A DNA stretch of 64,000 bases, taken from Stegostoma tigrinum (lineage: Eukaryota). The position numbers and the translations under genes were made by a program. The notes beneath the pieces were generated by a model. That model saw only the letters and a list, made by a program, of their open reading frames with translations. It searched no databases and was not told the origin of the DNA. Location of the stretch: positions 56,902,864-56,966,863 of the forward strand of contig NC_081373.1 in the NCBI RefSeq assembly GCF_030684315.1. The letters are read 5' to 3'. Below are positions 25,620-61,257 of the stretch, piece by piece (position 1 is the stretch's first letter; the number at the start of each line of letters is the position of its first letter).

Positions 25620-27830
25620 ATAGAATCATACTGCATAGAAACAGGCCCTTTGGTCCAACCAGTCCATTCTGATCATAATCCCAAACTAAACTAGTCCCAT
25701 CTGCTTGAACTTGGCCCAAATCCCTCCCAAGATTTCTAATACATGTACTTATCTAAATGACTTTTAAACATTGTAACTGTACCGTCATTCACCACTTCCC
25801 CTAGAGGTTCATTCCAAACACAAACCACTTGGTTTAAAAAAATTATCCCTCATGTCTTTTTAAAACCTTTCTCCTTTCACCTTAAAAAAAATGCCTCCTT
25901 GTCTTGAAATCCACCACCCTAGGGAAAAGACCATTTACCTTATCTATACCCCTTATGATTTCATAAAACTCTATAAGCTCACCTCTCAACCTCCTACACT
26001 CCAATTAAAAAAAATCCTGGCCTATCCAACCTCTCCTTATAACTCAAACCCTCCATTCCCAGCCACATTGTGGTAAATTTCTTTAGAACCCTTTCCAGCC
26101 TAATGATATCCTTCCTATAACAGGGTGACCAGAATTCCAAAACAGACCTTACCAATATCCTATATAACCTCAACTTAATATCCCAACTCGTAAACTCAAA
26201 GGTCTGAGAATTGATGGCAGGCATCCTGAAACATCATCTTAACCCCCTATGTGTGATGCAAACTTCAACGAATTGTGTAATTGGACCACTAGGTCCCTCT
26301 GATCTACAATACTACCCAAGGCCCAACTTTTAATTGCATAAATCCTGCCCTTGTGTGTTTTACCAAAATGCAAAATATTACCTTTATTCAAATTAAACTC
26401 CATCTGCCGTTCCTCAGCCTGTTGACCCAATTGATCAAGATCTCTTTGTAATCATAGAAAACCTTCTTCACTGTCATCATCAATTTTGGTATCATCTGCA
26501 AACTTACTACCCATGCCTTCAATATTCTTATATAAATCATTTATATAAATAACTAATAAAAGTGGACTCAACATCGATCCCTTTGAAACATTGCTGGCCG
26601 CACGCCTCCAGTCCAAAAAACAACCCTTCGACATCATTCTGTTTCCTGCTGTTAAGCCAATTTTGTATCCAATTGGTGAACTCACCTTGAATCCCATGTG
26701 ACCTATACTAAATAGTCTACCATTCAGGACCTTGTCAAAGGCTTTACTAAAGTCCAAGTAACCAATATCTACCTCTCTGCCCTCAAATCTTCTTAGTTAC
26801 TTCCTCAAAAAAACTCAATCAAGTTTGTGAGACGTAATTTCCCTCTCACAAAACTATGCTGACTATTCCTAATCATGCCTTGCCTGTCCAAATGCATATA
26901 AATCCTATCTTTCAGAATCATCTCCAATAACTTACCCATCACCAAAGTCAGACTCACAGGTCTGTAGTACCCAGGCTTCTCATTACATCCCTTCTTAAAC
27001 AAACAACATTAGACACCCCAGTCATCCAGCATCTCACCTGTAGTTATAGGTGATACAAATATTTCTGGAAGAGGTCCCGCAATTTACTCTCTGACTTCCC
27101 ACAACATCTTGGGATACATTAGATAAAGTCCTGGAGATTTTTCCACCTTTATACTTTCTAAGATCTCCAGCACATCCTCTTCTGTAATGTGAACAGTTTT
27201 CAAAATATCTATACTTATTTCCCTGAGTTCTGTAGCCTCTGTTTCTTCCCCCACAGTAAAAACAGATGCAGAATATTAAAGCTTTTGTGCTCCTGAGATG
27301 CTGCTTGGCCTGCTGTGTTCATCCAGCCTCACATTTTGTTATCTCAGAATATTAATTTAATGTCTTTCCTAACTCCTGAGGTTCAATACGAAAATGACTA
27401 CTTTGATCCTTAGGGGGCCCTACTCTCTCTCTCTCTCTCGTTGCTCTCTTGTTCTTAATACACCTGTAGAATCTCTTTGGATGATCTTATTTGCCAAGGC
27501 TATCTCATATCCTTGCTTTGCCTTACTGATCTCCCTGTTAAGAATGCCTCTACGCTCTTTATACTGTTCAAGAGATTCATTTGAACACAGTTGTCTAAAT
27601 CTATGTATGATTCTCTTTTATTCCTGACTAAAAACTCAATATTTTTATTCAACCATTGTTCTCTTAATCTTACCAGCCTTACCTAACACTCTAATATAAT
27701 GACTCTGAACTTTCATTGTCACACTTTTGAATGCCTCCCACTTATCAGATATCCCTCTACCCATGAACAGTCTACTCCCAATCAACTTTTGAAAGTTCTT
27801 GTCTCATGCCATTAAAATTTGCTTTATTCC
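25620..27830 (-). mobile_element. CR1 LINE fragment (RT), degenerate
   Basis: PGYYRPVSLT, DFSKAFDKV and SKFADDTK in minus-strand ORFs. Confidence 0.9.
27280..27344 (+). mobile_element. 65-bp Penelope-like mini-insertion with 11-bp TSD
   Basis: TSD CAGAATATTAA at 27269-27279 and 27345-27355; insert matches the sequence just downstream of the hammerhead core in other copies. Confidence 0.85.
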
Positions 27831-31772: not shown

Positions 31773-32933
31773 AGGGGGACGGGGTGAGGGTTCTGGAATA
31801 AATAGGGAGAGAGGGGGAGGCGGACCGAAGATGGAGAGAAAAGAAGATAGGTGGAGAGAGTATAGGTGGGGAGGTAGGGAGGGGATAGGTCAGTCCAGGG
31901 AAGACGGACAGGTCAAGGAGGTGGGATGAGGTTAGTAGGTAGATGGGGATGCGGCTTGGGGTGGGAGGAAGGGATGGGTGAGAGGAAGAACAGGTTAGGG
32001 AGGCAGAGACAGGTTGGACTGGTTTTGGGATGCAGTGGGTGGAGGGGAAGAGCTGGGCTGGTTTAGGGATGCAGTTGGGGAAGGGGAGATTTTGAAACTG
32101 GTGAAGTCCACATTGATACCATTAGGCTGCAGGGTTCCCAGGCGGAATATGAGTTGCTGTTCCTGCAACCTACGGGTGGCATCATAGTGGCACTGCAGGA
32201 GGTCCATGATGGACATGTCATCTAAAGAATGGGAGGGCGAGTGGAAATGGTTTGCGACTGGGAGGTGCAGTTGTTTGTTGCGAACTGAGCTCTTTAGATG
32301 ACATGTCCATACTGCACCTCCCAGTCGCAAACCATTTCCACTCCCCCTCCCATTCTTTAGATGACATGTCCATTCCGCTCAGTTCGCAACAAACAACTGC
32401 ACCTCCCAGTCGCAAACCATTTCCACTCCCCCTCCCATTCTTTAGATGACATGTCCATCATGGGCCTCCTGCAGTGCCACAATGATGCCACCCGTAGGTT
32501 GCAGGAACAGCAACTCCTATTCCGCCTGGGAACCCTGCAGCCTAATGGTATCAATGTGGACTTCACCAGTTTCAAAATCTCCCCTTCCCCAACTGCATCC
32601 CTAAACCAGCCCAGTTTGTCCCCTCCCCCCACTGCATCACACAACCAGCCCAGCTCTTCCCCTCCACCCACTGCATCCCAAAACCAGTCCAACCTGTCTC
32701 TGCCTCCCTAACCTGTTCTTCCTCTCACCCATCCCTTCCTCCCACCCCAAGCCGCACCCCCATCTACCTACTAACCTCATCCCACCTCCTTGACCTGTCC
32801 GTCTTCCCTGGACTGACCTATCCCCTCCCTACCTCCCCACCTATACTCTCTCCACCTATCTTCTTTTCTCTCCATCTTCGGTCCGCCTCCCCCTTTCTCC
32901 CTATTTATTCCAGAACCCTCACCCCATCCCCCT

Positions 32934-34570: not shown

Positions 34571-34792
34571 GAGATAATGGGAACTGCAGATGCTGGAGAA
34601 TTCCAAGATAATAAAATGTGAGGCTGGATGAACACAGCAGGCCAAGCAGCATCTCAGGAGCACAAAAGCTGACGTTTCGGGCCTAGACCCTTCATCAGAG
34701 AGGGTGATGAAGGGTCTAGGCCCGAAACGTCAGCTTTTGTGCTCCTGAGATGCTGCTTGGCCTGCTGTGTTCATCCAGCCTCACATTTTATT
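34571..34792. mobile_element. Penelope-like mini-element forming a perfect 90-bp hairpin, 14-bp TSD
   Basis: TSD ATACTTGATTTACA at 34557-34570 and 34793-34806; arms 34608-34697 and 34705-34794; 7-nt loop. Confidence 0.9.
34669..34700 (-). ncRNA. Minimal hammerhead ribozyme core, sense to the DYDC1 pre-mRNA
   Basis: Minus strand CUGAUGAAGGGUCUAGGCCCGAAACGUC, intact. Confidence 0.72.
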
Positions 34793-40113: not shown

Positions 40114-40225
40114 CCTGTCTCTGTTGCTATGGTCCTTTTCTCTCGCTGCAAGCGTCCGGTAACCAAGAAGAGCCGGAAGTGACGATTGGATGAGCAGCGA
40201 GCACCGCCCCCCGGGGGGGGCGGAG
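40114..40225. promoter_or_regulatory. Candidate bidirectional promoter and non-coding first exon of DYDC1
   Basis: Minus-strand donor CAGG|GTAAGT at 40114/40113; X-box-like GTTGCTATGG (40123-40132) and GGTAAC; ETS-CRE CCGGAAGTGACG (40173-40184); inverted CCAAT; GC boxes. Confidence 0.7.
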
Positions 40226-40226
40226 G

Positions 40227-41154
40227 CACACGGTGTGTGGGACCCCGGGACAGTGAGGCCGGGACGGGGTTACACAGTGTGCGTGGGGACCCCGGGACAG
40301 TGAGCCCGGGAGGGGGTTACACAGTGTGCGTGGGGACCCCGGGACACTGAGCCCGGGAGGGGGTTACACAGTGTGCGTGGGGACCCCGGGACAGTGAGGC
40401 CGGGACGGGGTTACACAGTGTGCGTGGGGACCCCGGGACAGTGAGCCCGGGAGGGGGTTACACAGTGTGCGTGGGGACCCCGGGACACTGAGCCCGGGAG
40501 GGGGTTACACAGTGTGCGTGGGGACCCCGGGACAGTGAGCCCGAGACGGGGTTACACAGTGTGCGTGGGGACCCCGGGACAGTGAGCCCGGGACAGGGTT
40601 ACACAGTGTGCGTGGGGACCCCGGGACAGTGAGCCCGGGACAGGGTTACACAGTGTGCGTGGGGACCCCGGGACAGTGAGCCCGGGACAGGGTTACACAG
40701 TGTGTGTGGGACCCCGGGACAGTGAGCCCGAGACGGGGTTACACAGTGTGCGTGGGGACCCCGGGACAGTGAGCCCGAGACGGGGTTACACAGTGTGCGT
40801 GGGGACCCCGGGACAGTGAGCCCGGGACAGGGTTACACAGTGTGTGTGGGGACCCCGGGACAGGGTTACACAGTGTGCGTGGGGACCCCGGGACACTGAG
40901 CCCGGGAGGGGGTTACACAGTGTGCGTGGGGACCCCGGGACAGTGAGCCCGGGAGGGGGTTACACAGTGTGTGTGGGGACCCCGGGACACTGAGCCCGGG
41001 AGGGGGTTACACAGTGTGCGTGGGGACCCCGGGACAGGGCTACATAGTGTGTTTGGGGACCCCGGGACAGTGAGCCCGGGAGGGGGTTACACAGTGTGTG
41101 GGGACCTCGGGACAGGGTTACACTGTGTGTGTGTGTTTGTGTGAGACCCCGGGA
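40227..41154. repeat. GC-rich 47-bp minisatellite, about 20 units
   Basis: Unit GGGGTTACACAGTGTGCGTGGGGACCCCGGGACAGTGAGCCCGGGAG, period 47, with a few shorter variants. Confidence 0.97.
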
Positions 41155-41499
41155 CATTCTCTGTGGCTCGGGGTCAATGAGACTGGTACCAGAACATGCT
41201 GTTATCCCAGTCGATGAACCTGTTTTTAACAATCTTCTTAGGCTTTCCTTTCCTCAGTATTTTCCTCTGCATTACCCCGGATTCTGGCGTGAGACTGTAC
41301 TATTAGTACCCACTGCAGTGGTAAACGTACTTGAAAGGACCTTGAATTTATTGATCCTGCCAGCTCTGTGAGAATAATCTGGCAGCCTGTCTGTGTGGCG
41401 TTGTATAAGACTGTTTGAGGCTCAGTGCTGAACCGCTGTTGGGAGGATTCCGTGTGTGTGTGTTTGGGGTGGGTGCTGTGATTATTCCCACACCGAGTG

Positions 41500-41615: not shown

Positions 41616-42354
41616 GTGAGTATCAGGAGAGGGGAGAGAAGAAACCCACATAGTTCGAGATTGAACCCGCATCTCTCTTTCTCTCCCCTTAGAGAGAGAG
41701 AGAGAAAGAAAGATTTTTGAGGGACAGAGAAGCAGAGCGTGGCGACAGTGAGGTCAACTGAATGTGGGAAGCAGACAGTAGGAGAGAAGAATTTCCAGAG
41801 CGAGACAGATAGTAGAACAGATGGGAATGGTCAGAGGATAACAGAGGCAGGTAAACAGGCATCGGAGATTACAATGGGAAGCAGTGGCTGAAAGAGGTGG
41901 CAAAATTAAGCTGGAGGGAGGGAGACAGCAGTAAAGAAGGGACATGAAGAGCCAGGGGAAAATAGGGAAAGGGAGATAGAGTGTAAAGGGAAGAAAAAAG
42001 GAGGGAGCGAGATGGTGGCAGTCTGACCGATAAATGAAGCCAAGGAATCAGGAAGTAAGAAAGGGAGGCAGACAGATGGAGGGAATGAAAGAGATGGGGA
42101 GAGAGAAGGAAAGGAAATGGGGGGCACAAAGACAGGGGAATAGGAGAAGCAAGGAAGACGCGCATATTAGCATGCCAGTGAGAGAGAGGGTGATAGAGAT
42201 CAGGTGACGGAAGGAGGGAGGCGGGCCATTTGAGTGAACTGAATGCTGCTGTTTTTAAGTTGCTTGTTTGACTGTGAATGGGATGTCTATCCTGCCGGTT
42301 ATTGCTGTTTGATCTTGTGTTCCAGGAAGTGTTGTGGAAGCTGAAGATTCTGAG

Positions 42355-42499
42355 ATGGGTTTGTGGCCGTTGGGCCTTGGAGCCTTGGGAGCAGCAATCA
42401 CCAGCGTGCTCCTGGCAAACACTGATCTCTTGCTGTCCCAAGCTGACACTGCAACACTCACATACCTGTCAGGGGCTTCACTGAGAACCTTGGATGAAG
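42355..42499 (+). CDS. PRXL2A: Selenoprotein U (peroxiredoxin-like 2A/FAM213A orthologue), first coding exon
   Basis: Acceptor ttccag at 42325; MGLWPLGLGALGAAITSVLLANTDLLLSQADTATLTYLSGASLRTLDE; ends at GC donor AG|GCAAGT, phase 1. Confidence 0.9.
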
Positions 42500-42639
42500 G
42501 CAAGTTTACAAGTCAAAGTATAAGAAACAACAGTGGTCTAATCACTGCCATGACTCATCTGGTATCTCTCTAAGTCTGGGTCAGAAGGTAATGGATACCA
42601 CCACCTCACCCTGCCTCTATCTAACCCAGGCAAAGACTT

Positions 42640-43050
42640 GAGTAACATAATCTAGGGCAGTAAGAGGAAATGCTGAGGGGCTCTTATTTGGGTGGGACAT
42701 TAAACCAAGACACTACCTAGCATCTCTGGTATGTGTGAAAGATCCCAAGGCACCATTTCAAAGAAGTGCACCCTCCCCATTGTCCTGGCCTGTATCTATT
42801 CCCCAATTGCAGAAAGAGATTACTTGCTCATTTCATATTGCAGTTTGTGGGAGCTTGCTGTGTGAAATGTGGCCACTACATTTTTTTATTTATTCAATCA
42901 GCAGAATATGTCATCCCTAATCTTCTTTGAGAGGGTGCTGGTGAGCTGCAATTCATGATGTTTAGGTATGTACACTGCAGTAAGGGAGGTGACTCCAGTA
43001 CATTATAACAATGACTATATTTAGAAAGTACTTTGCTTGCTGTAAACATG
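42640..43050 (+). mobile_element. Deu-domain SINE (SacSINE1/AmnSINE1-like); a second copy at ~61600-61905
   Basis: GACATTAAACC...AAAGATCCCAAGGCAC...TGTCCTGGCC...GTTTGTGGGAGCTTGCTGTG resembles the recalled Deu domain. Confidence 0.65.
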
Positions 43051-45090
43051 ATGTGATTGTTATTCACATTGCAAGGCTTTCAGTTCTTATTCATTCTCTT
43101 CCCTTCAACTTGCTTCTTTGTTGGCATGAGAATGTCTGTCTGAATGTTAATTGTTTTCTTGCTCAAGACATTCATTTGTGGTGCTGTCCTGTTATCCTTT
43201 ACTGCCGGTGTTTCATGGCCTTTTGTCTTTTCGTTGATGATGATATTGACTTTCAGGTTTGCAATGCTCACTTTTAAAGGTGGCAACAACATTTAATTGT
43301 AAATTAGATCAAATTTTTAAAAAAGCATACCCAACTGGAGCCTCATCGAAATCTTGCATTTAATTTAATTTAACCCTTTATCATTTATTGCATGGTGCAT
43401 TGGTGCTTAAGATCCTTTTTTCTTTTCTCAGAATTTTTCTTGTCTCACCATCCACCTATCTGTGTGCAATATCTGTGCTGCTAGTGAAACTGGCTGCAGT
43501 CACTATTGAACATCAAACTGAAAATGAACTACTTCACTGAGATCGTCTGTATCCTCACCCCATTCACTGCCTTGGCTCAATATTCCTTACCATACTTAAT
43601 AAGGAAAAAGGTATCAATTTTGGGTTTGAAATAATATAGCTAACCTCTACTGCTTTTAAATAGAGAGAAGTTTGGCCATTTTCTCTATATGGCCCAGCTG
43701 CAATTTTTGTAGACTCTCACACCAGCAGGCTTAAGTTTTATCAGTCCTGTCATAATCCTAAGACCCTCAAACAAGCCACCTCATAACGTTCTGAATTCAA
43801 AATTCTGTGATTTCTCCACACAAATCAACCTGTGGATTGCAGTGGTCAATACAGTATATCCTGCCAAAAAAGTGGTGCCCAGCAAATCCTCCAGGTGTAG
43901 CCTAATTAGGGCTTTGCAGACATTTTTACTCACCCTGGTCAGGGATGTTATTACACACCTCTGGAGCAGGTGGGATGTGAAGGCAGACTTCCTAGCTCAG
44001 AAGTAGGGATACGACCACTGAATCACAAGAGCTCCTTACCAGAACTTTGTATAACTTCAAAGTATTCTATTCCTCAAGATACAAAGATGAACAAGTGATT
44101 ATTTCCTGAATCTGTTTCTGACATTTTAATGATCTATGTGCCATGATGCTAAATCCCAGTGAATGTCCCCTGTCCGTGGCTTCAGAGCGTTTGAAAAGTG
44201 CTCTCTTTTATCATATTAATTCCAAAATAATTAACCTCATACATGCCACCCTTGAAATTCATTTGCCACAATTTTGCCCCTTTATGTAATCTATCAATAT
44301 CTCTTTGTAATATTACGCTTACATCTAAACTGCCTAAAATGCTGCCTGCCTTTGTATCACAAATAAACTTGTCCCATCATTTTAAGCCACTAATGAATAC
44401 AGTAAGTAGTGGAGACCCCAACACACACCCTTATGGGACGCTATCCTTCACATCTTGTGATTAAAGTATTCCTTTATTCCTGCCTCTCCTAACCATGTCA
44501 TTTACCCTCACTTCCACAAACTTCAACTTGAGCTAACAGTATCTTCTGCAGGACTATATCACATTCTTATCTAAGTAGCATTTCCTAAATGTTTCACTTG
44601 TAACTTGCTTAAAAACAGTTATTCAGTGCCTTAGGGTGAGAATTCATTCATCCTACATAATTGCCTTGTCCATTCTCTTGAACTTTCAATATTTACAGAC
44701 AATGATGACCAGAATGTGACAGAAAGGGACAATATACAGACCTAAGAGTGCTCTGGCAAATAGGCCAGCATAGAGAAAAATGGTGAAGAGGTGGAATTAA
44801 AGGCTGTTTATTTGAACACATGCAGCATCCATCTAAGATGAATGGATTGACAACACGAATATAAATAAATGGGTATGATATAATAGACATCGCAGATGGA
44901 CAGTTGCAAAATGACCACGGCTGTGAACTGAATATTCAGTAGATTTTTTGACATTGTGGAAAGATAGAAAGGAGTGAAAAGGGGTGAAAGAAATGTGTAT
45001 GTTTTCTGTATTCACCAAACGTCTCCCTGAACGTTCCTTCCACTCACTGTTCAATAATTTTAAACTGATTTCATCTCTTTATCTTTCTAG

Positions 45091-45182
45091 AGAAAAGGAG
45101 ATTTGAGGCAGCCGAGCTGTGGATGCAGACTGGTGCAGTCATCATGGCAGTGCGGAGACCCGGATGATTCTTGTGCCGAGAG
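45091..45182 (+). CDS. PRXL2A: Selenoprotein U exon with in-frame TGA (Sec) at 45165-45167, UxxC motif
   Basis: tctttctag|(E)KRRFEAAELWMQTGAVIMAVRRPG-U-FLCRE|gtactg; TGA aligns with the first Cys of mammalian RRPGCFLCRE. Confidence 0.95.
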
Positions 45183-46877
45183 GTACTGGAATAAGAGTTT
45201 GCTTCAGAATAACAATTGTCCCTATCAGTGTCCAAGGCTGTTGCTTCACTCTCCAGGCAGAGATGCTTCTGTGAGAACTCCTTCCCTCTCCCATCACAGT
45301 CATATTTCTACACTAAAAGCATTATATGAATGGGGATTGTAATTGGACCAGAAGTGGTGACCGAAATAGAGAGGGGTGAGGTAATGAAGGGATTTGAAAA
45401 CAAAAATTAGAACTTCAAAATGAAAGAATTGTTTGTCCAAAAACCAGTTAATAAAGGATCATAGTGATGTGAATCAGGATGTGGGGATAAGCTTTATACA
45501 GGCTGGAGATTGAAAGGCCAGTAAGGAGAAGGTTTCATCAATCCAAGTAGATTGAGAGGTAACACGTGTGGATGAACTCTGAGGCAGAGAAGCAGTCAGA
45601 TAGCGTGACTATGGAACGCTGTTGCTCCTGATACTGGAGCGGATGTGTGCTTAGAAACCCAACACAGGGTCGATGTTAGAGCAAGACAGTGCACAATTGG
45701 GCTTAATCTCAGCCACTTGACAGGAGGGGATGCAGTTGGTAGCAGGGCTGGAAAACAACGATTTAAATTTTCCTCATATTTAATTGGAAGAAATTTCCAC
45801 TCCTGCACCAGATGTCAGATGAGCAGTCCGATAGTTTCACGACAATGGAAGAGTTAAAAGAGGGGGTGCTCGTGAGGCAGGAGCTGGTGTTCATTGTTTG
45901 AGTGTGAAAATTAACACTGTACTTTCAGATGATTGCACCCTGGGGTAAAGTGTAGGGTGAGGTGGGAGGAGCTGTGGATAACTCCTTGGGGAAACACCAG
46001 TATTGGTGCAGCAACTGGAGGAGAAATCAGTGATGTTGGTTTTCTGTCTACGATCTGCTAAGAATGGAACCAGGAGTGAACAGTTTCGCCTGGTTGGAGA
46101 GGTGTTGCAAAAGGTAGGGGATTGACTGGATCAAAGGACAAGAAAGCCACGGAAAGCAAGTTTACTTTTGTCACATTCATGTAGGATGTCACTTGTGACA
46201 TTTGATAAGAGCTGCTTCAGCTCTAATTTAGGGACGGAAACCTAAATAAAGGGTTTCAAACATGGATTTGGAAGTGATAACATATTCAAAGGTTTTGAAA
46301 TGGAACAAGAGGTTAGATGTGAAGCATTAGCTTTTCCCCTGGAGACCAGAAGGTCAAGTTGAGGGAGAACAATTTAGTGGAAATAGCATTAAAAGGCAGT
46401 ACAAGGTGAGACTTTTGGACAAAGATGTGTTTTGGAGATGGCATGAGGGGAAATCGGGTGGAAAATAGGTTTGAGGTCTGAGAATTAAAGTCTCAAGTTA
46501 CTGGAAAAAAAGTCATTATTCATAAGCAATTTGAAAATATTTCATGTTTACTAAGAAGTGGTAGTGTAGATATGATATAAAGGCTAAATATCCTGTAAGT
46601 GACAGTTGACAATAGTTCAATGATATCAGAAGACAGGCAGAAGTTGTTACAGACTGTTGATTTCTATATTGACTTGCAAAGTCAGGAACTCCAGTTTGCT
46701 CCTCCAGCTTGAGGTCAGCTTTATCATTCACGTCATACTGCGGATCAATTCCTGGAGCTTTCAAAGCACTTGCAAAGATAAACAGGTCCAAAGGCGCCCT
46801 CCTATCAACATAGGAATGTCAACAGGGAAACTGAGCTGACAGACCCTGACTTTTCTGGGCACTGTTTCTGTACACTT

Positions 46878-46879
<2 letters not shown>

Positions 46880-46921
<42 letters not shown>
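46880..46921. repeat. (AG)n microsatellite
   Basis: Direct reading. Confidence 0.95.
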
Positions 46922-46923
<2 letters not shown>

Positions 46924-49259
46924 CAGTTTCTGTACTCAGGTGGCCGTAAACTGTGGTAGAAATTCTAAATGTCTTTCTATATTAGCACTAAAAACTATCA
47001 TCTAATAAAGATCCAATTTCTTACCAGGGGAAGCTTGGCCTCGTGAAAGATAGTGGAGTAATGGAGGCAGCTGAACAATGGCCTCCCTCTATGTTAGAGG
47101 TGAAGGTATATATGTTGAAGGGTTGGTTGGACAGGAATGTATGGGTGTGGGCAGAGTGAGTGGGGAATGGGTGGGATGAGGAGACAACGTATGGAGAGAT
47201 GGGTGTGGGGCTATCCAGAGCTGACCTCTACCTCAGAGCCTCTGGATCTGATAAGATAGCGTCAATGATTGTTGTCTTCTACAATTATGGATCTCATAGT
47301 GTTGACAAAGAAATATCTGCAGAGTCTAGTGAGGTTGGGGAAAGAGTTAACTTTTTTGAAGAACGTAATGATCAGTAGCCCTATATCTAACAAGTGCGAC
47401 ACCTTATTAAGAGGCTATAAGAGAGAGAGCAATATACTTTCTGAATACTGCTCACTTCCTGTAATCACATTATTTGCATATCACACAATAACTCGTTTAC
47501 AATTTAACCACAAGCATTTCCCCTTACTGTTCCCTGACTGGACACCATTTGTTCCTCATCTATCGCCAAATCAGTCAAAGGACAACCAGCTGTTTCTGGG
47601 GCTGATTGTCCTGGAGAGACTCATTAAAGCATGATTTCCCGCACCGCACCCCAAGCCTGATGAGGATGAACCTGAACACCTCCCCTTGCTTCCAAGACTT
47701 GAGCTGTCAGGACTGGATGGGGTGAGGTTTGAGCCCCAGGCCCAGACAGAGAGGCCTGAGTCCCTGCGGCGGAAGCCATATGTGACTTCTGATTTATGTG
47801 CCATGCACTCCATTCCCTGCTTCGCTGTCTTTGTTGCCCTGGTGAATCCTCACAATCAGTTCCTGTCTCTGTGCCATTCCTTAAATTTCACTCACTGCCA
47901 GAGTCTGAGGTCAGTGTCTTGCTTCTCTTTTCTTTTATGGTCCCACATCAGTGCTTGACCAGGTGGCTGCTCTTGGGTATTTGAAAGGAGAGAGAGGCAT
48001 AAGCTGGTGAGAGGAGGTTGGTGCCATCTGCAGCTTCTGAAGCCTTGTAGCTGAAGGAATGGGTTCCTCAGGGAGGCCAGCACCAGTGCAGAGACAGAAA
48101 GGAATGCACACCAGACAGGCTGTGCATGAACCAAGCTGAGAATAGAATGATCATGAGGCTTCAGACTAATGGATGGGGTAGCTGTTTGCCTGATGGACAA
48201 AGTTATTTTAAATAATAGCTCAGTAAACAAACGGAATAAAATTGAGTAACTTACACAATGTCAGTGGAAAGTAGACAGTTTAGTTAAAGCAGGAGAGAGA
48301 AATCAGAGAAATGCAAGTAGGACATTACAGTTGAGTAACAGCTTTTGGTGTATAATCCAAATGAATGTTCTTTATAGATATAAATAGTGATGAATAGGTT
48401 GCAGGCCCAAATTTAACTTGAATACAGCATGGTTGGACACTGAATTATAAGATTTACAAGAAAGAGAGAGAGGGTCGAGGGAGGGACACAACCTTTAATG
48501 ATTAAAGATGTTATCACTTTGTTGATATGAGAAGCCAAAACCCAGTCCTGGTCACCATAAGTAGGGGAGGAAGTATAGGCTGCTTGGACACCAAGAGTTA
48601 AGTTCCTAGGCACGATTAAACAAACCAATGTACTCGCTGGGATTTTGAAGATTAAAGAGAGATTTGAGCACGTTTTTCCAAGTATTAAGGAGCAGAGACT
48701 ATGTGCGGAGAGAAACAATTAGGATGGGGAATCTAGTACCAGGGAACATAATCTAAATCTCTGAGCCAAACCTTTCAGGAGCAAAATTAAGAAGCCCTTC
48801 TATGCACAAAGGGTGATAAGTACTTGGAACTGTCTACCACGGATGGCAATTGATGTTTGATCAGTTTATAATTTTCAAACTGAGATTGAGAGAATTTTGT
48901 TATAATCTGTCCTGTGTAAATGTAGTTGAGTGTGAAGTACATAGACACATACTTTGTGAGCACCATGCATGGTGGTTTCAAGGGTGTTTGTCTCCTGGGA
49001 TGTAAGTTGTTCTTCTACAGACAGCAGCATGGAGGAGGTATGTGACTGCTACTCCTGCTTTTTGACTTTACAAAGCAGAGTCACAAAATGCTCACTTTCA
49101 TAAAATTACCAATTACATTTACAACATGTGATTGGCACCCTATTCACTCCCTCCACCACCAACACACGGTGTGTGCCACCTACAAGATGTAATGTGGAGA
49201 TTGATCAGGGCTCCACAGACAGTACTTTCAAAGACCTTTCAGACGTGAACATAGAAGTG

Positions 49260-52170
49260 TTGTATAAGACCACAGTAATAGGAAAACAAGTGAGCCATTC
49301 AGATCTTTGAATCTGCTCCGCTTTTCAATAGGATCATGACTTATCGAACATTCTTCACATCCACTTTCCTGTTTTTTCCCTGTTACCCTTGATTCCCTAC
49401 TGACCAGGAATCTATTTCAGCCTTAAATAGACACAAAGATTGTGGTCCCAGAGCTCACTTTGACAAGGAGTTCTAAAGACTCAATCGTCAGGGAAGAAAT
49501 ACACCAACAAATACTCATCTCAGTCTTAAATTGGCACCTCTTTATTCTGGGACTATGCCCTCTGGCCCTAGATTCTGTCATGAAGGGAAACATCCTCTCA
49601 ATGTTTACCCTGTCAATCCCCTTAAGAATCCAAATTGTTTGATTGAGATTATCTCTCATTCTTCTAAACTCCAGTCAGTAGTGTCCCAACCTGTTTAACC
49701 TTTGCTTATAAGGTAATCTGTCCACACTTGGGATCATCCAAGTAAACCTTCCTTGAATTGCCTCCACTAAAATGATATCTTTCCTTAATTAAGTGGGTCC
49801 AAACAAGTCCAGAAGTGGTTTCACTTAGCACCCTGTACGTTTGCAGTAAGAGTTCCCCTCTTTTTACACTCAACCATCAAAATGTTGTCCCTTACTCCAT
49901 TAGACTTCCTGATTATCTGCTGTACCTGTGTGCTAACTTATTGTGTTTTGTGCACAAGTATCCCCAAGTCCCTTCATGCTGTAGCTTTCTGCAGTTTTTG
50001 TCCATTTAAATAATATTCTGTTCTCTTTTCTTCTTTCCAAAATGAACATGGTTACATTTTCCTCATGTTCTCAATTTGCCAACTTTTTGCCTACTTACTT
50101 AACCGTAACTAATCTCTGTAAACTGTTCGTATTCCTCTTGCAACTTGCCTTTTCAGCTATTTTTGTGTCATCTGCAAATTTGGCTGCAGGACATTCGTTT
50201 CCTACCTCCAAGTCATTAATATATGTTATAAATAGTTGCGGTCTCAGCAATGATCCTTGTGAAACCCCACTGCTCACAGGTTGCCAAACTGAAAAAGAAC
50301 TAGCTGTCTCCTGACCATTAGCCAATTCTCAATCATGTCAATATGCTACCTCCAGCACCATGGGCTGTTATCATATGACTTCGTCCTTTGTGAGGTAACT
50401 TGTTGAATGCTTTCTGGAATACCAAGTACAATACACCTATTGGTTTCCTTCTGTTCACTTCATTTGCAACTTCCTCAAAGAACCCTAATAAATTAGTTAG
50501 ACATGATTTTCCTTTCTGAAGCCATGCTGACTCTGCTTGATTAGATTATGATTTTCCAAATGTGCTGCAGCTACTTCCTTAATGACTGATTCCACATCCT
50601 TCTAACAATAGATATTAGGCTAATCAGCCTATACTTACTTTTTTGTTTTTTTTTCGTTTTTCTCCCTTTTTGAATAGGTGTGTCATGTTGGCAGTTCTCC
50701 AATCTTCTGAAACTTCTCTGGAATCCAAGGATTTTTTGGAAAATCACAGTCAATGCACACACTTTTTTTCTTTCAGAATCCTAGGATGAAAGCCATCAGG
50801 CCGAGGGGACTTATCTACCATTAGTTTGTCTAGTACCATTTCTCCATTGATAGTGACAGTGTTTAATTCCTCCCCGTATTCTTTAATATTAATGGGATTT
50901 TCAATGTATCTTCCATCCTAAAGTCTGATGCAAAATATCTGTTTCATTCCTTTGCCATTTCCTAGTTCAGCATAACTACTTCCCCAGATTCATTTTCCAA
51001 GGGGCTTACGTTCACTTTGACCTCTTTCTTCCGTTCCATAAATTTAAATAAGCTCTTATTGTCAGTTTTTATAATCCTCGCAATTTATGTTTTCTCTCTT
51101 TATTATCTTTTTAGACCCCTCTGCTAGATTCTGAATTTATCCCAGTCTTCAGGGCTATCACTGACTCTTGCCTCTTTATGTACGTTTGTTTTCAGCTTAA
51201 TCTTAGAATTCCTACAGTGTGGAAGCAGGCCCTTCAGCCCAACAAGTCCACTCTTACTCTTGGAGCATCCCACCCAGAACCATTCCCCTATAACCCATAC
51301 ACCCCTGGGCACTATGCGCAATTTAGTTTGGCCAATCAACCTAGACTGCACATCTTTGGACTTTAATCTCTCCTTCACTTCCTTGGTTTATCCCTCACTT
51401 AGAATCTTTCATCGTTACTGGAATATATTTTTGCTGAGAGTCCTTAAATTTCTGCCGCTTCTTGTTATTGTTATTAACCTCCCCACCCAGCCTATTTTAG
51501 CTAACTCTGTTTATTTCATTGCAATTCCTTTTGTTTAAGTTAAACACAGTTGTTTACAACCTAAGTTTCTAACTCTCAAACTAAATATTAAATTCTGTCA
51601 TCTTACGATCAGTACTCCCTCAGGGATCTTTGACTGAGGTAATTTAATAAACTTGCCTCGTTACTAGTTCCAAGATAGCCTGCTCCCTGGTTGGGTCAAT
51701 GACATAACCCTAATACACTCTATGAATTTGTTGTATCTACTTTTTCCAGTTTTACTAACCCCTTCATCATGAAGATTAAAGTTACCCATAATTATTGCTC
51801 TGTTCTTTTTACGTGCTCTTTTATTTGTTGATTTATAGCTTTTCCTGCAGTGTCACTACTGTTATGCACAAGTCCTATCAATGTTTTCATTCCCTTGTTT
51901 TCTTAAACGTACACCCAAATGGACTGTATATTGTCCAAGCTTAGATCACCTGTCTCAACTGTCCTAATTTCACCTTTTATTGTCATTACTACCCCACCAC
52001 CTTTTATTTTCCTCTTGCCTTTCCAAATGGTTAAACATCCCTGACTGTTAAGTTCCCAGTTTTGGTCTTGTTGTAACCATATCTCCATAATAACAATGAG
52101 ATCATATCCATTTCACTCGATTTGCACCATTTTTCTACCTTATTCCAAATGCTTCATGTGTTAAGATACA
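49260..52170 (-). mobile_element. Long degenerate CR1 LINE with an HE1 SINE fragment at ~51205-51362
   Basis: SGVSQGSLLRPQLF...AKFADDTK and endonuclease-region remnants on the minus strand. Confidence 0.85.
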
Positions 52171-53298
52171 AAGTATTTAAGTTAGCAAATTTTATATTAT
52201 CAAATTTTCCTACTCTTCTATGATTTATTGGTGCACATATTGTTCGCACATTCTATTCTTTCCTTTTATTTTCTGGAAACTGTCAGCTCCATCACTAACT
52301 TGCAATCCTACCCTCTTCTTTAACTTTGATTTTCTAGTTTTCCATGAAATTGAACACAATGTTTAGTTCTCCAGAGGTAGCGAGTATTATCACTGAGTGA
52401 TATCTCCTTAAGAACCTCAACATGCGAAAGAGCCAAGTACTCTGATGTCATCACATTACCAGGAGCCATGTCACCCCATATTACCACACCCCAGGAAAAA
52501 GCCCTGTCTGAGCATGATTATCCAACTTTGTCTTTCACTCATTAGGCTAGTGAATAAAGTTTAAAATGATAAAGTTTGGCACAATATTCAACAGAAATTT
52601 CATTTTTTAAAAAAGTTGTTGGCAATAAATTGATTATTCGCATAATTACCAAATAGGATCATTAGAAAGATCAATGTAGCAAAGCAAATTAATCAAACTT
52701 CTTTTTTTGCCTTTTTGATTAAGAAACAGAGTTAGAGACACTCAGACAGACTAGGCCTAAATCCTAATTTCCAGGGAAGGGGGAGGGGACCAGGACTGAA
52801 CTAAGGAATTTGGTTTACGCGTCATTGACCATAGTTTACTGCTGGCAATGCACACTCTGAGCTGGTTGTAACCAAATTTATGGGAAAGTGAAGTGGAAAA
52901 CGGGTCGGATTTCCTCCTCTTCCAGCAGTTTTGTAAATAAGTTCTTGGGCAGAGAAAAGGAAGGCTGTTTGTGTTAACCTCAGTTTCATGTTGCACCACC
53001 CCCTCCCCCTCCCCCCCCCCCGACCACCAAAACATTAGAATTTCAGAAACGGTAATGTTTGCTGATGACTGTACAATGTTCAGCACCATTCACAATCTCT
53101 CTGGTATTGAAACAGCAAATGCATCAAGGCTCGGGCGAATCTAGGTTGTGCTGACAGGTTAAAAAGTAACATTTGTGCCATATAAGTGCCAGGCAATGAT
53201 AACTCCAATGAGAGAATTTAACCACTGCCCCTTGATATTCAGTGGTATTACCATTGCTGAATCTTCAGCTACCAACACCCCGGGGGTCGAGACCTATT

Positions 53299-53415
53299 TC
53301 TGAAGAAGGGTCTAGGCCTGAAATGTCACCTTTCCTGCTCCTCTGCTGCTTGGCCTGCTGCGTTCATCCAGCTCTACACCTTGCTATCTCAGATTCTCCA
53401 GCAGTTCCTACTATC
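53299..53415 (+). mobile_element. Penelope-like fragment with variant hammerhead core
   Basis: CTGAAGAAGGGTCTAGGCCTGAAATGTC followed by the family 3' sequence. Confidence 0.75.
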
Positions 53416-53569
53416 TGTAGCTTTAAATGTTGCTAGCCTCACTCAGTGTGAGTAGGTGTGGTTGATGGTACACCGCAATTCCCGGACTCTCTCTCTAGCC
53501 TTCCCTTAGAGAGGTTGATACGTTCTGGAAACATGATACTTGAATTGATGATTCCTCCTTCTGCTGCAG

Positions 53570-53710
53570 GAGGCCAATGACATCTCCTCTCTGAAACCCC
53601 AGCTTGATGAGTTAGGGGTCCCTCTGTATGGAGTCGTCAAAGAAGATATCAATAATGAATTAAAGAGCTTCCAACCTTTTTTCAAAGGCGAGATTTTTCT
53701 AGATGAAGAG
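53570..53710 (+). CDS. PRXL2A: Selenoprotein U, coding exon 3
   Basis: ctgcag|EANDISSLKPQLDELGVPLYGVVKEDINNELKSFQPFFKGEIFLDEE|gtaggt; 141 nt. Confidence 0.95.
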
Positions 53711-54036
53711 GTAGGTGCCAAGTTGTGGCCTGTGAGAGCGAGTGGTGATATGTAAATATTTAATCTGCAACTGCTGTGCGTGAGAGACCGAGCGAGCGTG
53801 TGTGTGTGCCCACACCTGTGCCTAGCAGTGTGTGTCTGATCGATGTGTGGTGTTCACAGAGTGTTGTTTACGTGGAAGGTATTCATTGGAAGGGTTAATT
53901 TGTGTGTTGATGGTATCGGGCCAGCAATGGAATGTGTTCTATGGATTGAATGGGAGTGAATATTTTGTGGGGTTCATTTGTTGCCAGCATCAGTTTGCCA
54001 TTCAGCTAATGTCTGCCTGGCTCCCTCCATCTTTAG

Positions 54037-54201
54037 AAACGCTTCTATGGACCAAACAAACGCACCATGGGACTCCTTGGCCTTTTCCGTCTGGGTGTTT
54101 GGAGGAATTTTTTGAGAGCCTGGCGAAAAGGATTCAGCGGGAATACAGACGGAGAAGGATTCATCCTTGGAGGAGTATTTGTTTTAGGAGCTGGAGATCA
54201 G
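54037..54201 (+). CDS. PRXL2A: Selenoprotein U, coding exon 4
   Basis: ctttag|KRFYGPNKRTMGLLGLFRLGVWRNFLRAWRKGFSGNTDGEGFILGGVFVLGAGDQ|gtcagg; 165 nt. Confidence 0.95.
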
Positions 54202-55014
54202 GTCAGGAAATGCAGTGCCTCCTTCTCAAGCTTCACAAACAGGAACCACTTTTTGCCCTGCTGAACTGGTTTCTTCTGATCTCACCTCTGTTTCTTTCTC
54301 CCTTTGTTATTGCATCAGTGTCACTTGCCACAGTTTGCTGACTCTAACCATAGAAAAGTTACAAACAAGAAAGAGACCATTAGGCCTATCATGCCTATGC
54401 TATCAGTCACTATGGATGCCTCATCCCTCTACACCTCCATTTCCCCCTAAGGAGAGCTCAGCACCACTTCACTGAATGCATAGTCCATTTCTTCCTCCAT
54501 TTCTGCTGGTAGGCATCATAAGCCCAGTGCATCCACAATTACTTTCAATGCACTTTCTGAAAACCTCTCTTCTATTTTAACCAGTTACTCAAGTCTGTTA
54601 CGTTTGTTTGGACAATGCAGCCTTCCATATTCATATTTCTGCAATGTCTGTCTTTCTTTGCCCGTAACAAACAAATTTGTCCACCATGATTAACAGGGTG
54701 CCCTACTGTGCCTACTCTGTTTTAATGCTGTTCTGTTCTCGCTCTTCCCCTCAATTCCAGGAGCTTTATCCTATCCACTCCAAACACATCTTCCCATCCT
54801 CTCTCAGAATTCTGAAAGGATTGTTGCCTCCCTGATTGCCTGGTTCTCTTCTCAATCAACCCAAAGCTGCCATTTCTTTCTCTGTGGAGTGCAGGACATG
54901 CAAGACCTCTCCCACCTCCTCCCTTCTCACAATGCAATGCTTCAAACATATTTTACAGTGAAACAGAAATTTATTTCTATTTTTTTCAATGTTGTATGCT
55001 GTATTCTCTGCTCA

Positions 55015-55180
55015 TGATGTGGTTCCCTCTACATTAGGAAGGCCATTCGCAGACTGGGTGACTGCTTTGAGGAACACATCCATTCAGCCCATAAGCATGT
55101 ATCTGAGCCCTCTGTGACCTGTCATTTTAATTCTCAATCTCACTTCGCACTCTGACCTTTCTGACCTGGAATGCCACTGG
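55015..55180 (+). mobile_element. Old Penelope-like GIY-YIG endonuclease remnant
   Basis: Translates CGSLYIRKAIRRLGDCFEEHIHS...VTCHFNS (decayed YIG...R...EH). Confidence 0.65.
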
Positions 55181-57039
55181 CAAGAGACAGAGTTGGGGGA
55201 ATTGTGGAATGGGCAGGGGTGCTCCAAAGGTTTAACTTGTCATTGCTCACTGCATTCTCCCTTGCCCGCCACAGCTGAGGAATAAAGACCACATCATTCT
55301 GCCTGACTGACTATATGTTATTGCCCCCTTAACCCAGTGGGCAAGGCAGCTGGGGCTAATAAGGGGCAAAGAAGGAAAGTGGGAACTGAAGTGACAGGCT
55401 TGTCTCTGCCAATTGCCGACTGGAATGAACTGAAACAAATTCAAATTATGTATCAAGATACGGATGGTATGACCCTGTAATAAAGGTAGAATAGTAAGGA
55501 GATAAAAGCAGGACATCAGTGATAAGGTCAGAGATCACAGTTGATGGAGTATGAAATTGGCATGAACTATCAAAACTCTCATCCAGGTTTGTATTTGGAT
55601 GTAGAGGGCAAGGTTGCTAGAAGCCATGTGACACAAGGAGGAACATATTCCTGTTGGAATGTGGGTCTAGGAGTGTGTAGCAATGGTCAGGGGGCAGAAA
55701 ATAGTGGAAGGTTGCCCAGCATTACAAAATTCAGAGACTGGAGACAAATATTGAAAGACGTGATGTCCTAGCTAGGAATCGGAGGACAGCTGATCTGGAA
55801 AACATGGTTTACAAGTCGTAGACCCAACAGATGACAGGAGTGTCGATGGATGAGGGTAAATTAAGTCACTTTAAGATATAAGCAATAGAGCAGCTGAGCC
55901 TAGTGAGGCCCCAGTAAAACCCAATGCAGACTAGTGTATTTCAGTGCACCCCAGCCTAGTCCCATGTAGGCCTGTGCAGTTCAGTGCTATTCAGTGCCAC
56001 CCATTATAACCCTGTGCATTCCAATGAAGTTGAGTGCAGTCCAGTGCAGAAACAAGCTTGATTCCCAGACAAATCCAGAAATTTGAAAGCCAAATTTGAG
56101 CAAAGATTGAAAGTTTAATGAAATCAAAATCAAAGAAAAGAAAGCATTTTTGGCAGTTGGCCCAATTAATTTTAAGCTAACAGTTTGAAAGCCTTTGGTT
56201 TTGATTAAAAGGCATCTGGTTTGGAGCCAGGGGAATATAAACAGTGTCAATGAGGAGAAGAGAGAAAAAAAGAAGGATGATGGTTGATGGATAGGTTTAG
56301 AGATGAATAGTGAGTTGCCCGGATGACAGTTGCCTGGCTCAGAGTTATCTGTGAAGCAAGTCCTCTATTGCAATACAAACTATTGATGTCATTGTCCATG
56401 GATATTTCCCTAACCCCACCCATACAGCTCTTCTCTCAGCTTCCAAGTTCAAGGGCGATCATGTAAGATTCTAAGGAGCAGGAGTAGACCATTCAGACCC
56501 TTAAACCTGTACCACTACTCAATAAGTTCACAGCTAAAACGAATGTGGCCTGAACTCCACTTCTGCAGGGTCCCCATTACCTTTGGCTCTGCTGTTGATG
56601 GGAAATCTGTCTCAATCAGCGTTGAACATCTCCAATAATCAGTCCACTACTGTTCTCTGAGGAAGAGAAATTCAAAAATTAATGACCCGCTGAGAGGACA
56701 GATTTATCCCCAGTCATTCATCTTCAGTGGAAGACCCCTTATTTTTAAACTGTTCCCTTTCATTCTAGATATCCCATGAGGTTATTCCCTCTAGGTATAT
56801 ATCCTGTCATTCTCCCCCCCCCCCCCCCCCCATCAGTTTCTTAACGGTTTTAATAAGCTCACCTTTCTAAACACTAATCAGCATTGGCCCAAACTGCTCA
56901 ACCCTTTCTCATAAGACCATGTCTTCATCCTGGGAATAAGTGTCACGACCCTGCTATGAAATATCCTGTACAATTGTAGCAAACCTTCTCTCCTGTATAC
57001 ACTATCTCCTTGCAATTATGGCACCTGTTCCATTTTGTT

Positions 57040-57395
57040 TTCTTTATTCATTCACGGGATGAGGGTGTCACTGGCTAGGCAGCATTTATTGCCCATCTCT
57101 AATTGCCCAGAGGACAGTTAAGAGTCAACAGCATTGCTATGGGTTTGGAATCGCATGTAGACCCAGGCCAGATAAGGATGGCAGTTTCCTTCTCTAAAGG
57201 GCATTAGCGAACCAGATGGTTTTTCCAACAATTGACAATGGATTCATGGTCATCATTAGATTCTTAATTCCAGATATTTATCACATTCAAATTTCACCAT
57301 CTCCGTAGTGGGATTTGAACCTAGGTCACCAGAACATTATCTGGGTCTCTGGATTAATAGTCCAGCGATAATGCCACTAGGCCATTGCCTCCCCC
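57040..57395 (-). mobile_element. tRNA-derived SINE, same family as 12843-13200
   Basis: Reverse-complement similarity along the full length. Confidence 0.8.
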
Positions 57396-57693
57396 CGTCT
57401 TGCCAAGTGCTTTACTGTATCTGTGTTCCATCCTTTGTTGAGGATAGTGGGTGAATATGAAGGAAGATGGTAAGAGGAGGGTTGGTGGGAGTGAGGGAAA
57501 TGATGGGGAGTGGGAGAGGGCATTGAACAAGGAAGGGTGATGGGTGAGGGGAGTGGGTTGGTCAGAGATGTGAGGAAGGGGGAGTTTGATGGAGAGATAA
57601 GGAAAGGGGTTAGGAAGAGGAGAGGAGTAGTGGGAGGAACCAGATTGTCTCCTGCTCTTGGCCTTGGTCTCAGCTGCTATTGTATTCACACAG

Positions 57694-57801
57694 GGAGTCC
57701 TCCTAGAGCACCGTGAGAAGGAGTTCGGTGACGCTGTTGATATCCACTCTGTCCTTGAAGCAGCCAGGAAGGTCAGGCCTCCGAGAGTCACTGAAAAATA
57801 G
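57694..57801 (+). CDS. PRXL2A: Selenoprotein U, last coding exon
   Basis: cacag|GVLLEHREKEFGDAVDIHSVLEAARKVRPPRVTEK*; true stop TAG at 57799-57801. Confidence 0.93.
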   Translation, partial: GVLLEHREKEFGDAVDIHSVLEAARKVRPPRVTEK

Positions 57802-58159
57802 ACTGCCAGAAACTGAGAAATCAAAAGGAAATGCCACAGTGAAACTCCTGTTCAGTATCAAGTAATCACTGCACAGCGCTGGATCCCCAACCACTGCTCC
57901 ACTGATCCCTCTTCCTCTTCCCCCATATCCAGACTGTACTCCTGACTCCCTAGAATCCCACCCAAATCCTGCTCCCTACGTGAACCCTCCCACTCTGCAT
58001 TCAAATCCTGCCTTTCTCTTCCTGAACCACACCTCTCTGCTCCCCCACCCCACTCCAGAACCCTGCCTCCCTCCCCCTGAACCATACCTCTCTGCCCCCA
58101 AACCTACCTCACTAGCCCCTAGAACTCTACCCTCTCTTTCCTGGGGCTGCTCTGTGTTG

Positions 58160-58235
58160 CTGACCTGCACTGTATTAATGAGGGTCTGATCCTAAAGCTA
58201 TTGGCTCATGGCCTGATATTTACAGAGTTGGTCAG
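58160..58235 (+). promoter_or_regulatory. SECIS element in the SelU 3'UTR
   Basis: ATGA (58178-58181), 12 nt, AAA (58194-58196), TGAT (58214-58217); helix II GGTC-TGA-CC pairs with GG-TCA-GGCC; helix I CTGTA/TACAG and CTGACC/GGTCAG. Confidence 0.88.
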
Positions 58236-58293
58236 GAGTGAAATTCTGACATGGAATTGAAGTGGAAACTGTTTGTAACCTGAACCTAATCAC

Positions 58294-58299
58294 AATAAA
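58294..58299 (+). terminator. Polyadenylation signal AATAAA for SelU
   Basis: AATAAA about 60 nt after the SECIS. Confidence 0.7.
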
Positions 58300-61257
58300 A
58301 GAATACAAGACAATGATATTGCTATTAATTTCACCTTAATCTCACTTCCCAGCTATCGATTCTTTTCAAATTCTAAACAGCCCTCCATCTACAGATTAAC
58401 CCCCAGTGTTGAAACTGTTGGGGAACCACTGGGGCACTGTGCCAGAACATCCTGAATGCCCCATGCTTGAAAGAGTATTCACTGGTCAGTGGCAGCTTTT
58501 TTTATACTTAAGTGGGATGTAAGCATCAGTGACAAGGCTCATCCCTAAATGCTGTGGACCTGAGTGGCTCACGTGGCTGAGGGTCTGGAGTTGTATGTAG
58601 ACCAAACCGGATAAGGACAGCAGATTTCCTCCCCTAAAGAGCATTAGTGAAACAGGAAAGTTTTGAACAGTAATCGATGATAACTGTCATGGCCACTGTT
58701 ACTGAGACTAGCTTTTTAGTTAGGTGTTCATTAATTCAAGTTCCACTTGAGGTGGGATTCGAGTCTGTGAACTCGTGGACATTACCGCTACACCTTAGCT
58801 CCTTTGGGAATGGTGTTCCTGCTGGGGTGTTCTCTACACATTGCCCTATTCTGGGAATGGAGCATCTCCTGGACAATGCCATGTGCTGGGAATAATGTTT
58901 GTGAAGGTAATCACTGTGTGCTGAGAACCTTTACTGTCATTTAGTCTGACCTGTAGGTTTGATGTTCTATTTGCAAACTTGGACCACATTATCCATTCAA
59001 ATTACTCTTCACTTATCACTTGCCAAACACTATGTACTCAGCTCTAAGAGGGGCCAGCACTGTGTAACTATGATCATTTAGATTAACTGCAGCAAAGCTC
59101 CATAAAGTACTGTGGAATATTTTTGGCAGGTGCTTGGGTGAGTACAATTGAAACCACTTGTGCAATCTTGTAAACAGAGGTATCGAGTACCATAGCAAAG
59201 AAGTTCTGTTCAATCTTTAGAAACACTGGTTCAACCTGAGCTGGTGGAATGGGTCCAGCTCTGGGTGATACATTTCAGGAAAAGTGAGAACTCATCAGAG
59301 AGGGATGTGGATAAGATTCATGAGAACGGTCTCCAGGGATGAGGCGCTTGTTTACTTGGATAGGTTGGAAAAGTTGGGACTGTTAACTGTCAAATGAAAT
59401 TTGAGCCAAATGCAATGCCAAACTTAAATTCTTTGAATTTAAAAATAAGACATTTTTGCAGGGCTCAACTGCAGCATTGCAGACTGTTGATATTCCCAAC
59501 CCCACACAGCCTGTGGTTCAAATGTGTGCCAAGGTGCTGCCAACATGCTGGAGAGGAGACACTAGTGCCTCCCTGCAGGGCAATGCCAAAGTTTCTCTTC
59601 CCAAGAAAAGTGCCTCCTGTCCCCAATGAGGCAGCTTGGATGGAGATTGCAGGTGAGGCTAATAGGGAAAAAGATCACTCCCAGATCCTGGGTGCGTGTG
59701 CTGGAAAAGGCGCAGCACGCTGCCAGAGGGCATCATCCACATAGTTGGGATAAGCCTAATGATAATGGATTAAAGAGGACAGCCTTCACAAAATACATCT
59801 GCCCTCAGAGGCCCACTGAGCCAGAGGGGAAAAAAACCTAGGAAAATAACCAGTAATACTTTGGAAATGTTTGCACTGAGCACACAAAGCTCCACTTTGA
59901 AATGTACAAGACAGGACAAAAGCTTTACTGTCTTGTTCTTCTCTGTTAAATCCCAGTGATGAAGTAAACAATGAGGGAATGATGGCTGAAACTCTGGCCC
60001 AGCCACAGAATCTGATTCTACCCCAAACTTTAGGAAGGATGTGAGGAAATCAAAGAATAAAAATGACTACAAGGATGAGGAACTTGGGCATGTGGATTAT
60101 TTGGAGAAGTTGAGGCTATTTTCCTTGGAGAAGAGTGTGTGAGGAGGTTTGTTCAAAATTAGGAGTGATGTGGAGACATGATAGGGAGAAATGTTCCCAT
60201 AGGTGAAGGTGTCAAAAACTAGTTGCACAGGTTGGCAAAATAGTGACATGAGAAATATTGTTTAGAATAAAGAGCGTTTAGGACATCGAATACAGTATCT
60301 GAGAGTGTGGTGCAGGCAGGTACAATCAGGGCTTATAGAAGGATTGCATTAGCAATCAAGCAGGGGTAAACCAAAACATATTTGATGGTTTTAGAGAAAA
60401 GGATTGACTCGCTTTAGCATATATTGAGAGCAGAAAATGCTGCAGAACTCGTTTCTGACAGCATACGTGGAGAGAAACCAAGGCAACATTTCGAGTCTAA
60501 TGACTGTTTATGAAAACTGAAGAAAGGGGTGCAAAAGTGATGGAGATCATGCTGAGGAAAGCAAGTCGTCCACGGCCAAGATGGCTACCACTTGACGGTG
60601 CAGATGGCAACAATGACGTGACAGACCCTTCTGCCAGACCCCCTGCCTCCTATCCCTGCCTCTGCTCTGACCATTGCCCTACCCCTCCACCTCCCCACTC
60701 AATTCTCCCCTGGATACTGCTACCACTTTGAGCTCTTTCTGAGCATTTTACAGAATTTTTGCCACCCTGCAGCACTGGTAGTAAATCAACAGGCAGTCTT
60801 CACACTGTTGGAAATGAGAAGGAGCAAGTGAAACATGAAGTTCAAAAAAAGGTGAGGGGAGATTAGCGATCAGAGGTGTCACATAACAAAAGGAGTGGGA
60901 ATGTTTGTAGAGAAGACTTGGAATAGATCCAGAGAAGGAACAGAATGAAACTGAATTCCGATTGAAAGCAAAACAATGAAAAACTGTAAATTACAGACAC
61001 TGCGGATGGGAGGAGGCTGAAGTATCACAATGCAGGAAAGTGTTCATAGTTTGATGTTGTTTAATTGTCCTGACGCACTTAAACAGAAAATAAACCACTG
61101 TTTCTGCAGCTTATACTGGGCTTTGCTGGAACATTGCAGCAAATGCAGGACAGAAACATAAGCCTGGGAATTCAGGATTTCCAGACAGCCAGCACCAATA
61201 GCCTTTTGCTGTTGCTAGAACCACAATTTCAGAAGCCACAGTGGGCTCTGAAAGCCT

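Follow-up and report, generated by a model that had tools for sequence, protein, structure and literature searches.

The window analysed here is a stretch of 64,000 nucleotides (64 kb) from the carpet shark Stegostoma tigrinum and contains, on its forward strand, five coding exons (42355-42499, 45091-45182, 53570-53710, 54037-54201 and 57694-57801) which give 217 codons when joined and are bordered by AG acceptors and GT or GC donors. A single internal in-frame stop interrupts the joined exons, a TGA at codon 74 (45165-45167) in the context RRPG-TGA-FLCRE; it is separated from a hairpin in the 3' UTR by 13.0 kb of DNA, as the first-pass annotation had said (13 kb), and by 805 nt in the spliced mRNA. 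The exon with the ATG at 42355, which fits the conserved MG(L/M)W start, extends over 42326-42499 and ends in a GC donor, and the following one (45091-45182) carries the TGA within a UxxC motif (RRPG-U-FLC). The third and fourth exons each match part of the AhpC-TSA_2 domain (Pfam PF13911, E 2e-07 for 53570-53710 and 2.8e-06 for 54037-54201; two of the five exons tested), and the last exon (57694-58310) is coding down to a TAG at 57799-57801 and continues into a 3' UTR of about 510 nt. No neighbouring gene usable for synteny was found by Pfam in 35 of the 107 stop-to-stop frames, which gave two reverse-transcriptase fragments only (RVT_1; 396-1448 and 26452-26796, both on the reverse strand, probably from LINEs). 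Other repeats of the window include an inverted repeat at 2137-2413 (110-nt arms, 92% complementary, 57 nt apart) with many sub-threshold microRNA-family matches, which is probably a MITE-like or other inverted repeat element, smaller hairpin-like matches around 10205-10321, 32238-32344 and 34651-34749, and high-copy interspersed repeats recognised by very high contig depth (about 57050-57390, 58540-58790, 53290-53420 and 51200-51370). The copies at 57050 and 58540 flank the last exon and resemble the shark HE1 SINE.

Splicing of these exons is seen in assembled contigs of 4 of 13 runs that were aligned to 42250-58800; the four come from three organisms and four studies, and none of the 13 is on record as RNA. 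All four coding joints are present in every one of them, and in two (X13 and X7) one contig joins all exons through the hairpin. X13 corresponds to the window's organism by its share of words, and may stem from the same project as the window; its contig of 1212 nt spans 42326-58310, has 92 letters across the TGA exon and shows no difference in the four pieces listed. X7, from another organism, provides a contig of 1385 nt that passes through the hairpin to 58307. The contigs of the other two runs (X1 and X2) break at a C-rich stretch, resume at 58075 and end at 58303 and 58313 respectively. This stretch (about 57900-58140), an imperfect repeat whose length varies, directly precedes the hairpin within the 3' UTR; the sequence of one relative (organism A) has 12 nt inserted there and skips 55 nt. 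The bin of contig depth that includes the hairpin shows no repeat-like pile-up. Further upstream, the intron before the TGA exon (42500-45090) is of the GC-AG type and its joint is present in all four runs. There is also a likely first exon at 40130-40235, suggested by an X1 contig with 103 letters upstream of 42326; from an ATG at 40190 and a GT at about 40233 it could splice in frame to 42326, adding about 24 N-terminal residues. A GC-rich minisatellite with a 47-bp unit (at least 13 copies, 96% identity) lies directly behind this presumed exon, at 40239-41115.

By similarity, the encoded protein belongs with PRXL2A (FAM213A), also named SELENOU1 and known as a selenocysteine (Sec) protein in fishes and birds. 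Over the 54037 exon, identity to PRXL2A is 98% for the whale shark and 95% for the bamboo shark. A search with the whale-shark model (P0001) returned 422 relatives, and the named ones among the 120 listed are almost all PRXL2A/FAM213A; PRXL2A proteins of tetrapods and fish are 62-68% identical to the gene product in the best matches listed (65.7-68.1% in the homolog records described below). Sequence searches give both the AhpC-TSA_2 domain and the closest similarity to PRXL2A, and the (U/C)xxC redox motif that follows RRPG in SELENOU1/PRXL2A is present as RRPG-TGA-FLC, with the TGA at the position of the first residue of the family's CxxC. Among 124 homolog records, this position is C (RRPG-C-xx-C) in 69 records; 19 unnamed records begin at MCREE just past it, one record is without the residue and 35 are without the CRE motif. 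U appears at the position in none of the 124, a count to be read with care since such records may write U as C, so that the 69 may include Sec proteins. Among eight homologs that were aligned, three fish or reptile models are gapped across the site. P0001 is marked partial and begins at the exon after the TGA exon, which it omits, and the bamboo-shark model (P0002) reads the TGA exon off-frame; the DD that it shows there corresponds to TGA or CGA, which rules out a Cys codon at the site in the bamboo shark. Judged from their sequences, these two public shark PRXL2A models mishandle the UGA exon. A metagenome scan for homologs gave two loci, of which one (L001) is a single exon at a contig end without 3' UTR and the other (L002) is a distant homolog (37% identity) on a 1017-nt contig, with a TGA at the same position. 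L002 has a SelU-like reading frame at 258-800 and, by eye, a type II-like SECIS candidate at about 870-925 in its 3' UTR; no Rfam SECIS model matched L002, which folds with a z of -1.56, and the locus is too distant to be suitable for a SECIS alignment with the shark hairpin. Searching the PDB by sequence gave no PRXL2A, the only structure being that of the paralog prostamide/prostaglandin F synthase.

The features of eukaryotic SECIS elements, with a G at +1 and a U at -4 for type I, are defined in the available text of PMC2647825, and the shark hairpin can be read against them. It is a candidate type I-like SECIS element at 58170-58225 on the forward strand, which in the predicted fold consists of helix I, an internal loop, the non-Watson-Crick quartet, helix II and an apical loop of 10 nt. 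Helix I, beneath the internal loop, is made of five Watson-Crick pairs (58170-74/58221-25) with pair probabilities of 0.63-0.69 when the whole 3' UTR is folded. The 5' strand of the quartet with its preceding unpaired A is AUGAG at 58178-58182 (AUGA at 58178-58181, aligned to the AUGA of the Rfam model, A58178 being the unpaired residue and UGAG occupying 58179-82), and the 3' strand is UGAU, a KGAW sequence, at 58214-58217. The four pairs are U.U, G.A, A.G and G.U, so the UGAN/KGAW quartet has the tandem G.A/A.G core and the 5' unpaired A of eukaryotic elements. Helix II and the apical loop occupy 58183-58213; the helix has 9 bp, a bulged U58209 and one U.C mismatch, with pair probabilities of 0.90-0.95 in the whole-UTR context, and the loop (58193-58202) begins with UAAA, whose unpaired AAA (58194-58196) follows the AUGA after 12 nt (58182-58193). 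The nine pairs and the mismatch stand above the four-pair quartet, and this agrees with a helix II of about 11-16 positions followed by an unpaired A run if the quartet is counted within the 11-16 bp of PMC2647825, as we assume. The extras of the type I consensus, a G at +1 with a C opposite and a U at -4, are present as well. A type II-like apex is possible and is predicted to be 3.2 kcal/mol less stable than the type I apex.

The first-pass annotation had described a canonical SECIS hairpin at 58160-58299, about 360 nt after the stop and just before the poly(A) signal, and much of this description stands. The quartet, the apical AAA and the AATAAA are found at 58178, 58214, 58194 and 58294 with the 12-nt spacing it gave, both helices that it had paired by eye are in the predicted fold, and 358 nt separate the end of the TAG (57801) from 58160, or 376 nt from the AUGA. 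All these motifs fall inside its interval; the element proper is confined to 58170-58225, since the outer stem that would begin at 58160 (58160-68/58227-35) is disfavoured in the UTR, with a pair probability of at most 0.03 there. Folded in isolation that outer stem reaches a z of -3.78, but its bounds were chosen post hoc and it is gone in the UTR context, and it was not retained. The AATAAA (58294-58299, forward strand) is the first one after the stop, lies 68 nt beyond the end of the element at 58225 and is likely the poly(A) signal. The contigs of all four runs end at 58303-58313, that is 4-14 nt past it, which is a weak hint of a poly(A) site there, contigs being unable to prove an end; three of these 3'-end contigs carry 18-23 extra letters whose content was not displayed.

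The term canonical was a little generous: all core features are present, but the Rfam score is low. In a scan of 1 kb, Rfam SECIS_1 (RF00031) covered the hairpin with its whole model at 21.8 bits (E 0.21), below its gathering cut-off of 35 bits, and was the top one among five Rfam rows, with SECIS_5 at 18.5 bits; the apical part of the hairpin is shorter than in the consensus of the model. Scanning the whole window with Rfam gave no match at gathering thresholds, and SECIS was not among the 36 matches at E<=10. The covariance-model check that had been proposed for the hairpin thus returned a full-length match together with, in part, the poor score that had been named as refuting it, at least with the Rfam model. 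The folding energy is equally modest: the 140-nt interval of the first-pass annotation has a z of -1.76 (11 of 200 shuffles as good) and the hairpin core a z of -2.05 (6 of 200). A home-made SECIS pattern, designed with the candidate already in view and used in a loose form (motif) and a strict one (motif plus energy filter), found seven sites on both strands of the window, two of which pass the filter (58178 and an intronic one at 41177). Shuffled 64-kb strands contain on average 2.4 loose and 0.33 strict matches (30 shuffles). The intronic look-alike (41167-41226; AUGA at 41177, AA at 12 nt, then GA) was rejected as it lies outside the joined exons and folds with a z of -1.30 (22 of 200 shuffles as good), and it served as a chance control. 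Consequently the claim that the hairpin independently corroborates Sec decoding did not hold: with a sub-threshold Rfam match and chance matches of this kind expected in 64 kb, the hairpin alone is unremarkable and constitutes no independent proof, and the case is carried by its context. The available text of PMC3753652 attributes high false-positive rates to SECIS predictors and sees the strong argument in a UGA that aligns with an established Sec position.

The same numbers could be taken to mean that the hairpin resembles a SECIS by accident and the gene is a pseudogene, or that an assembly error turned a TGC or TGT into the TGA: motif-level matches are expected by chance in 64 kb at 2.4 per strand, Rfam has no match at its cut-off, and the letters of the contigs at the TGA were not displayed. 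This explanation is extremely improbable and already largely refuted. Among 3000 shuffles of the 509-nt 3' UTR a loose match arose in 4 and a strict one in none; the frame is otherwise intact and as similar to tetrapod and fish PRXL2A as given above, spliced contigs exist in three organisms, the codon is bypassed in the other shark models too, and L002 has the same TGA. The TGA and the hairpin support each other, the latter being located in the 3' UTR of an mRNA whose in-frame UGA falls on a conserved Sec/Cys site. What the first-pass annotation proposed in substance, a SECIS serving the Sec decoding of that TGA, is supported by the core features, the position in a spliced 3' UTR, the single TGA at the redox position and the presence of both on the same contig in two of the four runs.

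Comparison with a relative also favours a functional element. Over the segment 58075-58303, organism A has 5 differences in 229 letters (2.2%), against 17 of 686 in the exons and 128 of 1959 (6.5%) in seven listed intron pieces, a background that may include paralogous repeats and comes from a list of 40 of 427 entries. The segment with the hairpin differs at a rate like that of exons (Fisher p 0.003 against the intron pieces), as measured by difference counts, the positions within the hairpin not being displayed. Conservation like that of coding sequence speaks against another explanation, in which the selenoprotein gene is real and the hairpin acts as a SECIS that is weak or degenerate, with low Sec insertion and most translation ending at the UGA. 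Its arguments are the sub-threshold Rfam score, the shortness of helix II and its bulge and mismatch, and a competing type II-like apex that is only 3.2 kcal/mol less stable; however, the core motifs are all intact, the pairs of helix II have probabilities of 0.9 or more, and L002, with the same TGA, is also without an Rfam SECIS match, which suggests limited sensitivity of the models (the L002 element being itself unproven). A weak element is thus very unlikely in our estimation. By its anatomy and context, and despite failing the Rfam cut-off, the hairpin is a probable type I SECIS, and that cut-off appears to miss what is very probably a SECIS.

We are therefore highly confident that the mRNA of shark SELENOU1 (PRXL2A/FAM213A) has its functional type I SECIS in this hairpin, a reading that joins the gene structure, the single in-frame UGA and the hairpin on the same spliced contig. 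By analogy with known elements, its tandem G.A/A.G pairs would form a kink-turn bound by SBP2 (SECISBP2), and SBP2 with eEFSec and Sec-tRNA would lead the ribosome to insert selenocysteine at UGA 74, 805 nt upstream of the SECIS. These SBP2 and eEFSec steps of Sec insertion at UGA are established Sec biology, which PMC2647825 and PMC3753652 describe in part. The product would be a peroxiredoxin-like oxidoreductase of 216 residues (or N-terminally longer) with a UxxC site, and reading the UGA as a stop would leave a fragment of 73 residues. Termination would then occur 321 nt upstream of the last exon junction, so that nonsense-mediated decay is probable when selenium is low. A more speculative and unlikely proposal is that the compact, low-scoring SECIS is a tuned element of low efficiency that flips between type I and type II apices. 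If so, the SELENOU1 transcript would be selenium-sensitive and coupled to decay, and the shark element would represent the relaxed condition that gave rise to the recurrent replacement of Sec by Cys in tetrapod SELENOU1.

SelU1 is counted among 28 ancestral vertebrate selenoproteins in the available part of PMC3316567, where mammalian UGA-to-SECIS distances range from 207 to 5207 nt, a range that includes the 805 nt of the shark. PMC13134290 and its preprint, as far as their text is available, include nine cartilaginous fish genomes and assign every Sec gene of the family to SELENOU1; the Cys conversions named in that portion of the article are those of therians, frogs, turtles, parrots and pike, with none in sharks. 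An earlier description of a shark SelU SECIS was not found in the literature searched, parts of which were available only as excerpts, and the supplement of PMC13134290 may list the SELENOU1 of this or a sister species. The present locus contributes the SELENOU1 of a cartilaginous fish, including its SECIS and the layout of its exons, which is of modest value, mainly for fixing shark gene models; knowledge of Sec recoding and of the ancestral Sec state of SELENOU1 is unchanged. SELENOU1 was already known as a selenoprotein of fishes and birds, and the shark hairpin is very likely its ordinary Sec signal. As in SELENOU1/SelU1 (PRXL2A, FAM213A, C10orf58) of those groups, the shark gene has the PF13911 domain, the RRPG-(U/C)-xx-CRE motif and PRXL2A/FAM213A as best named matches; it differs from the known SELENOU1 in species only (a carpet shark), whereas, in the available text of PMC13134290, therian, frog, turtle and parrot orthologs carry Cys. 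Like eukaryotic type I SECIS elements (RF00031), the hairpin has the unpaired A, the UGAN/KGAW quartet, helices I and II and the apical A run, is located in the 3' UTR within the stop-codon exon and aligns to the full-length model; unlike their consensus, it stays at 21.8 bits where the cut-off is 35, and has a compact 10-nt loop and a helix II interrupted by one bulged U and one U.C mismatch.
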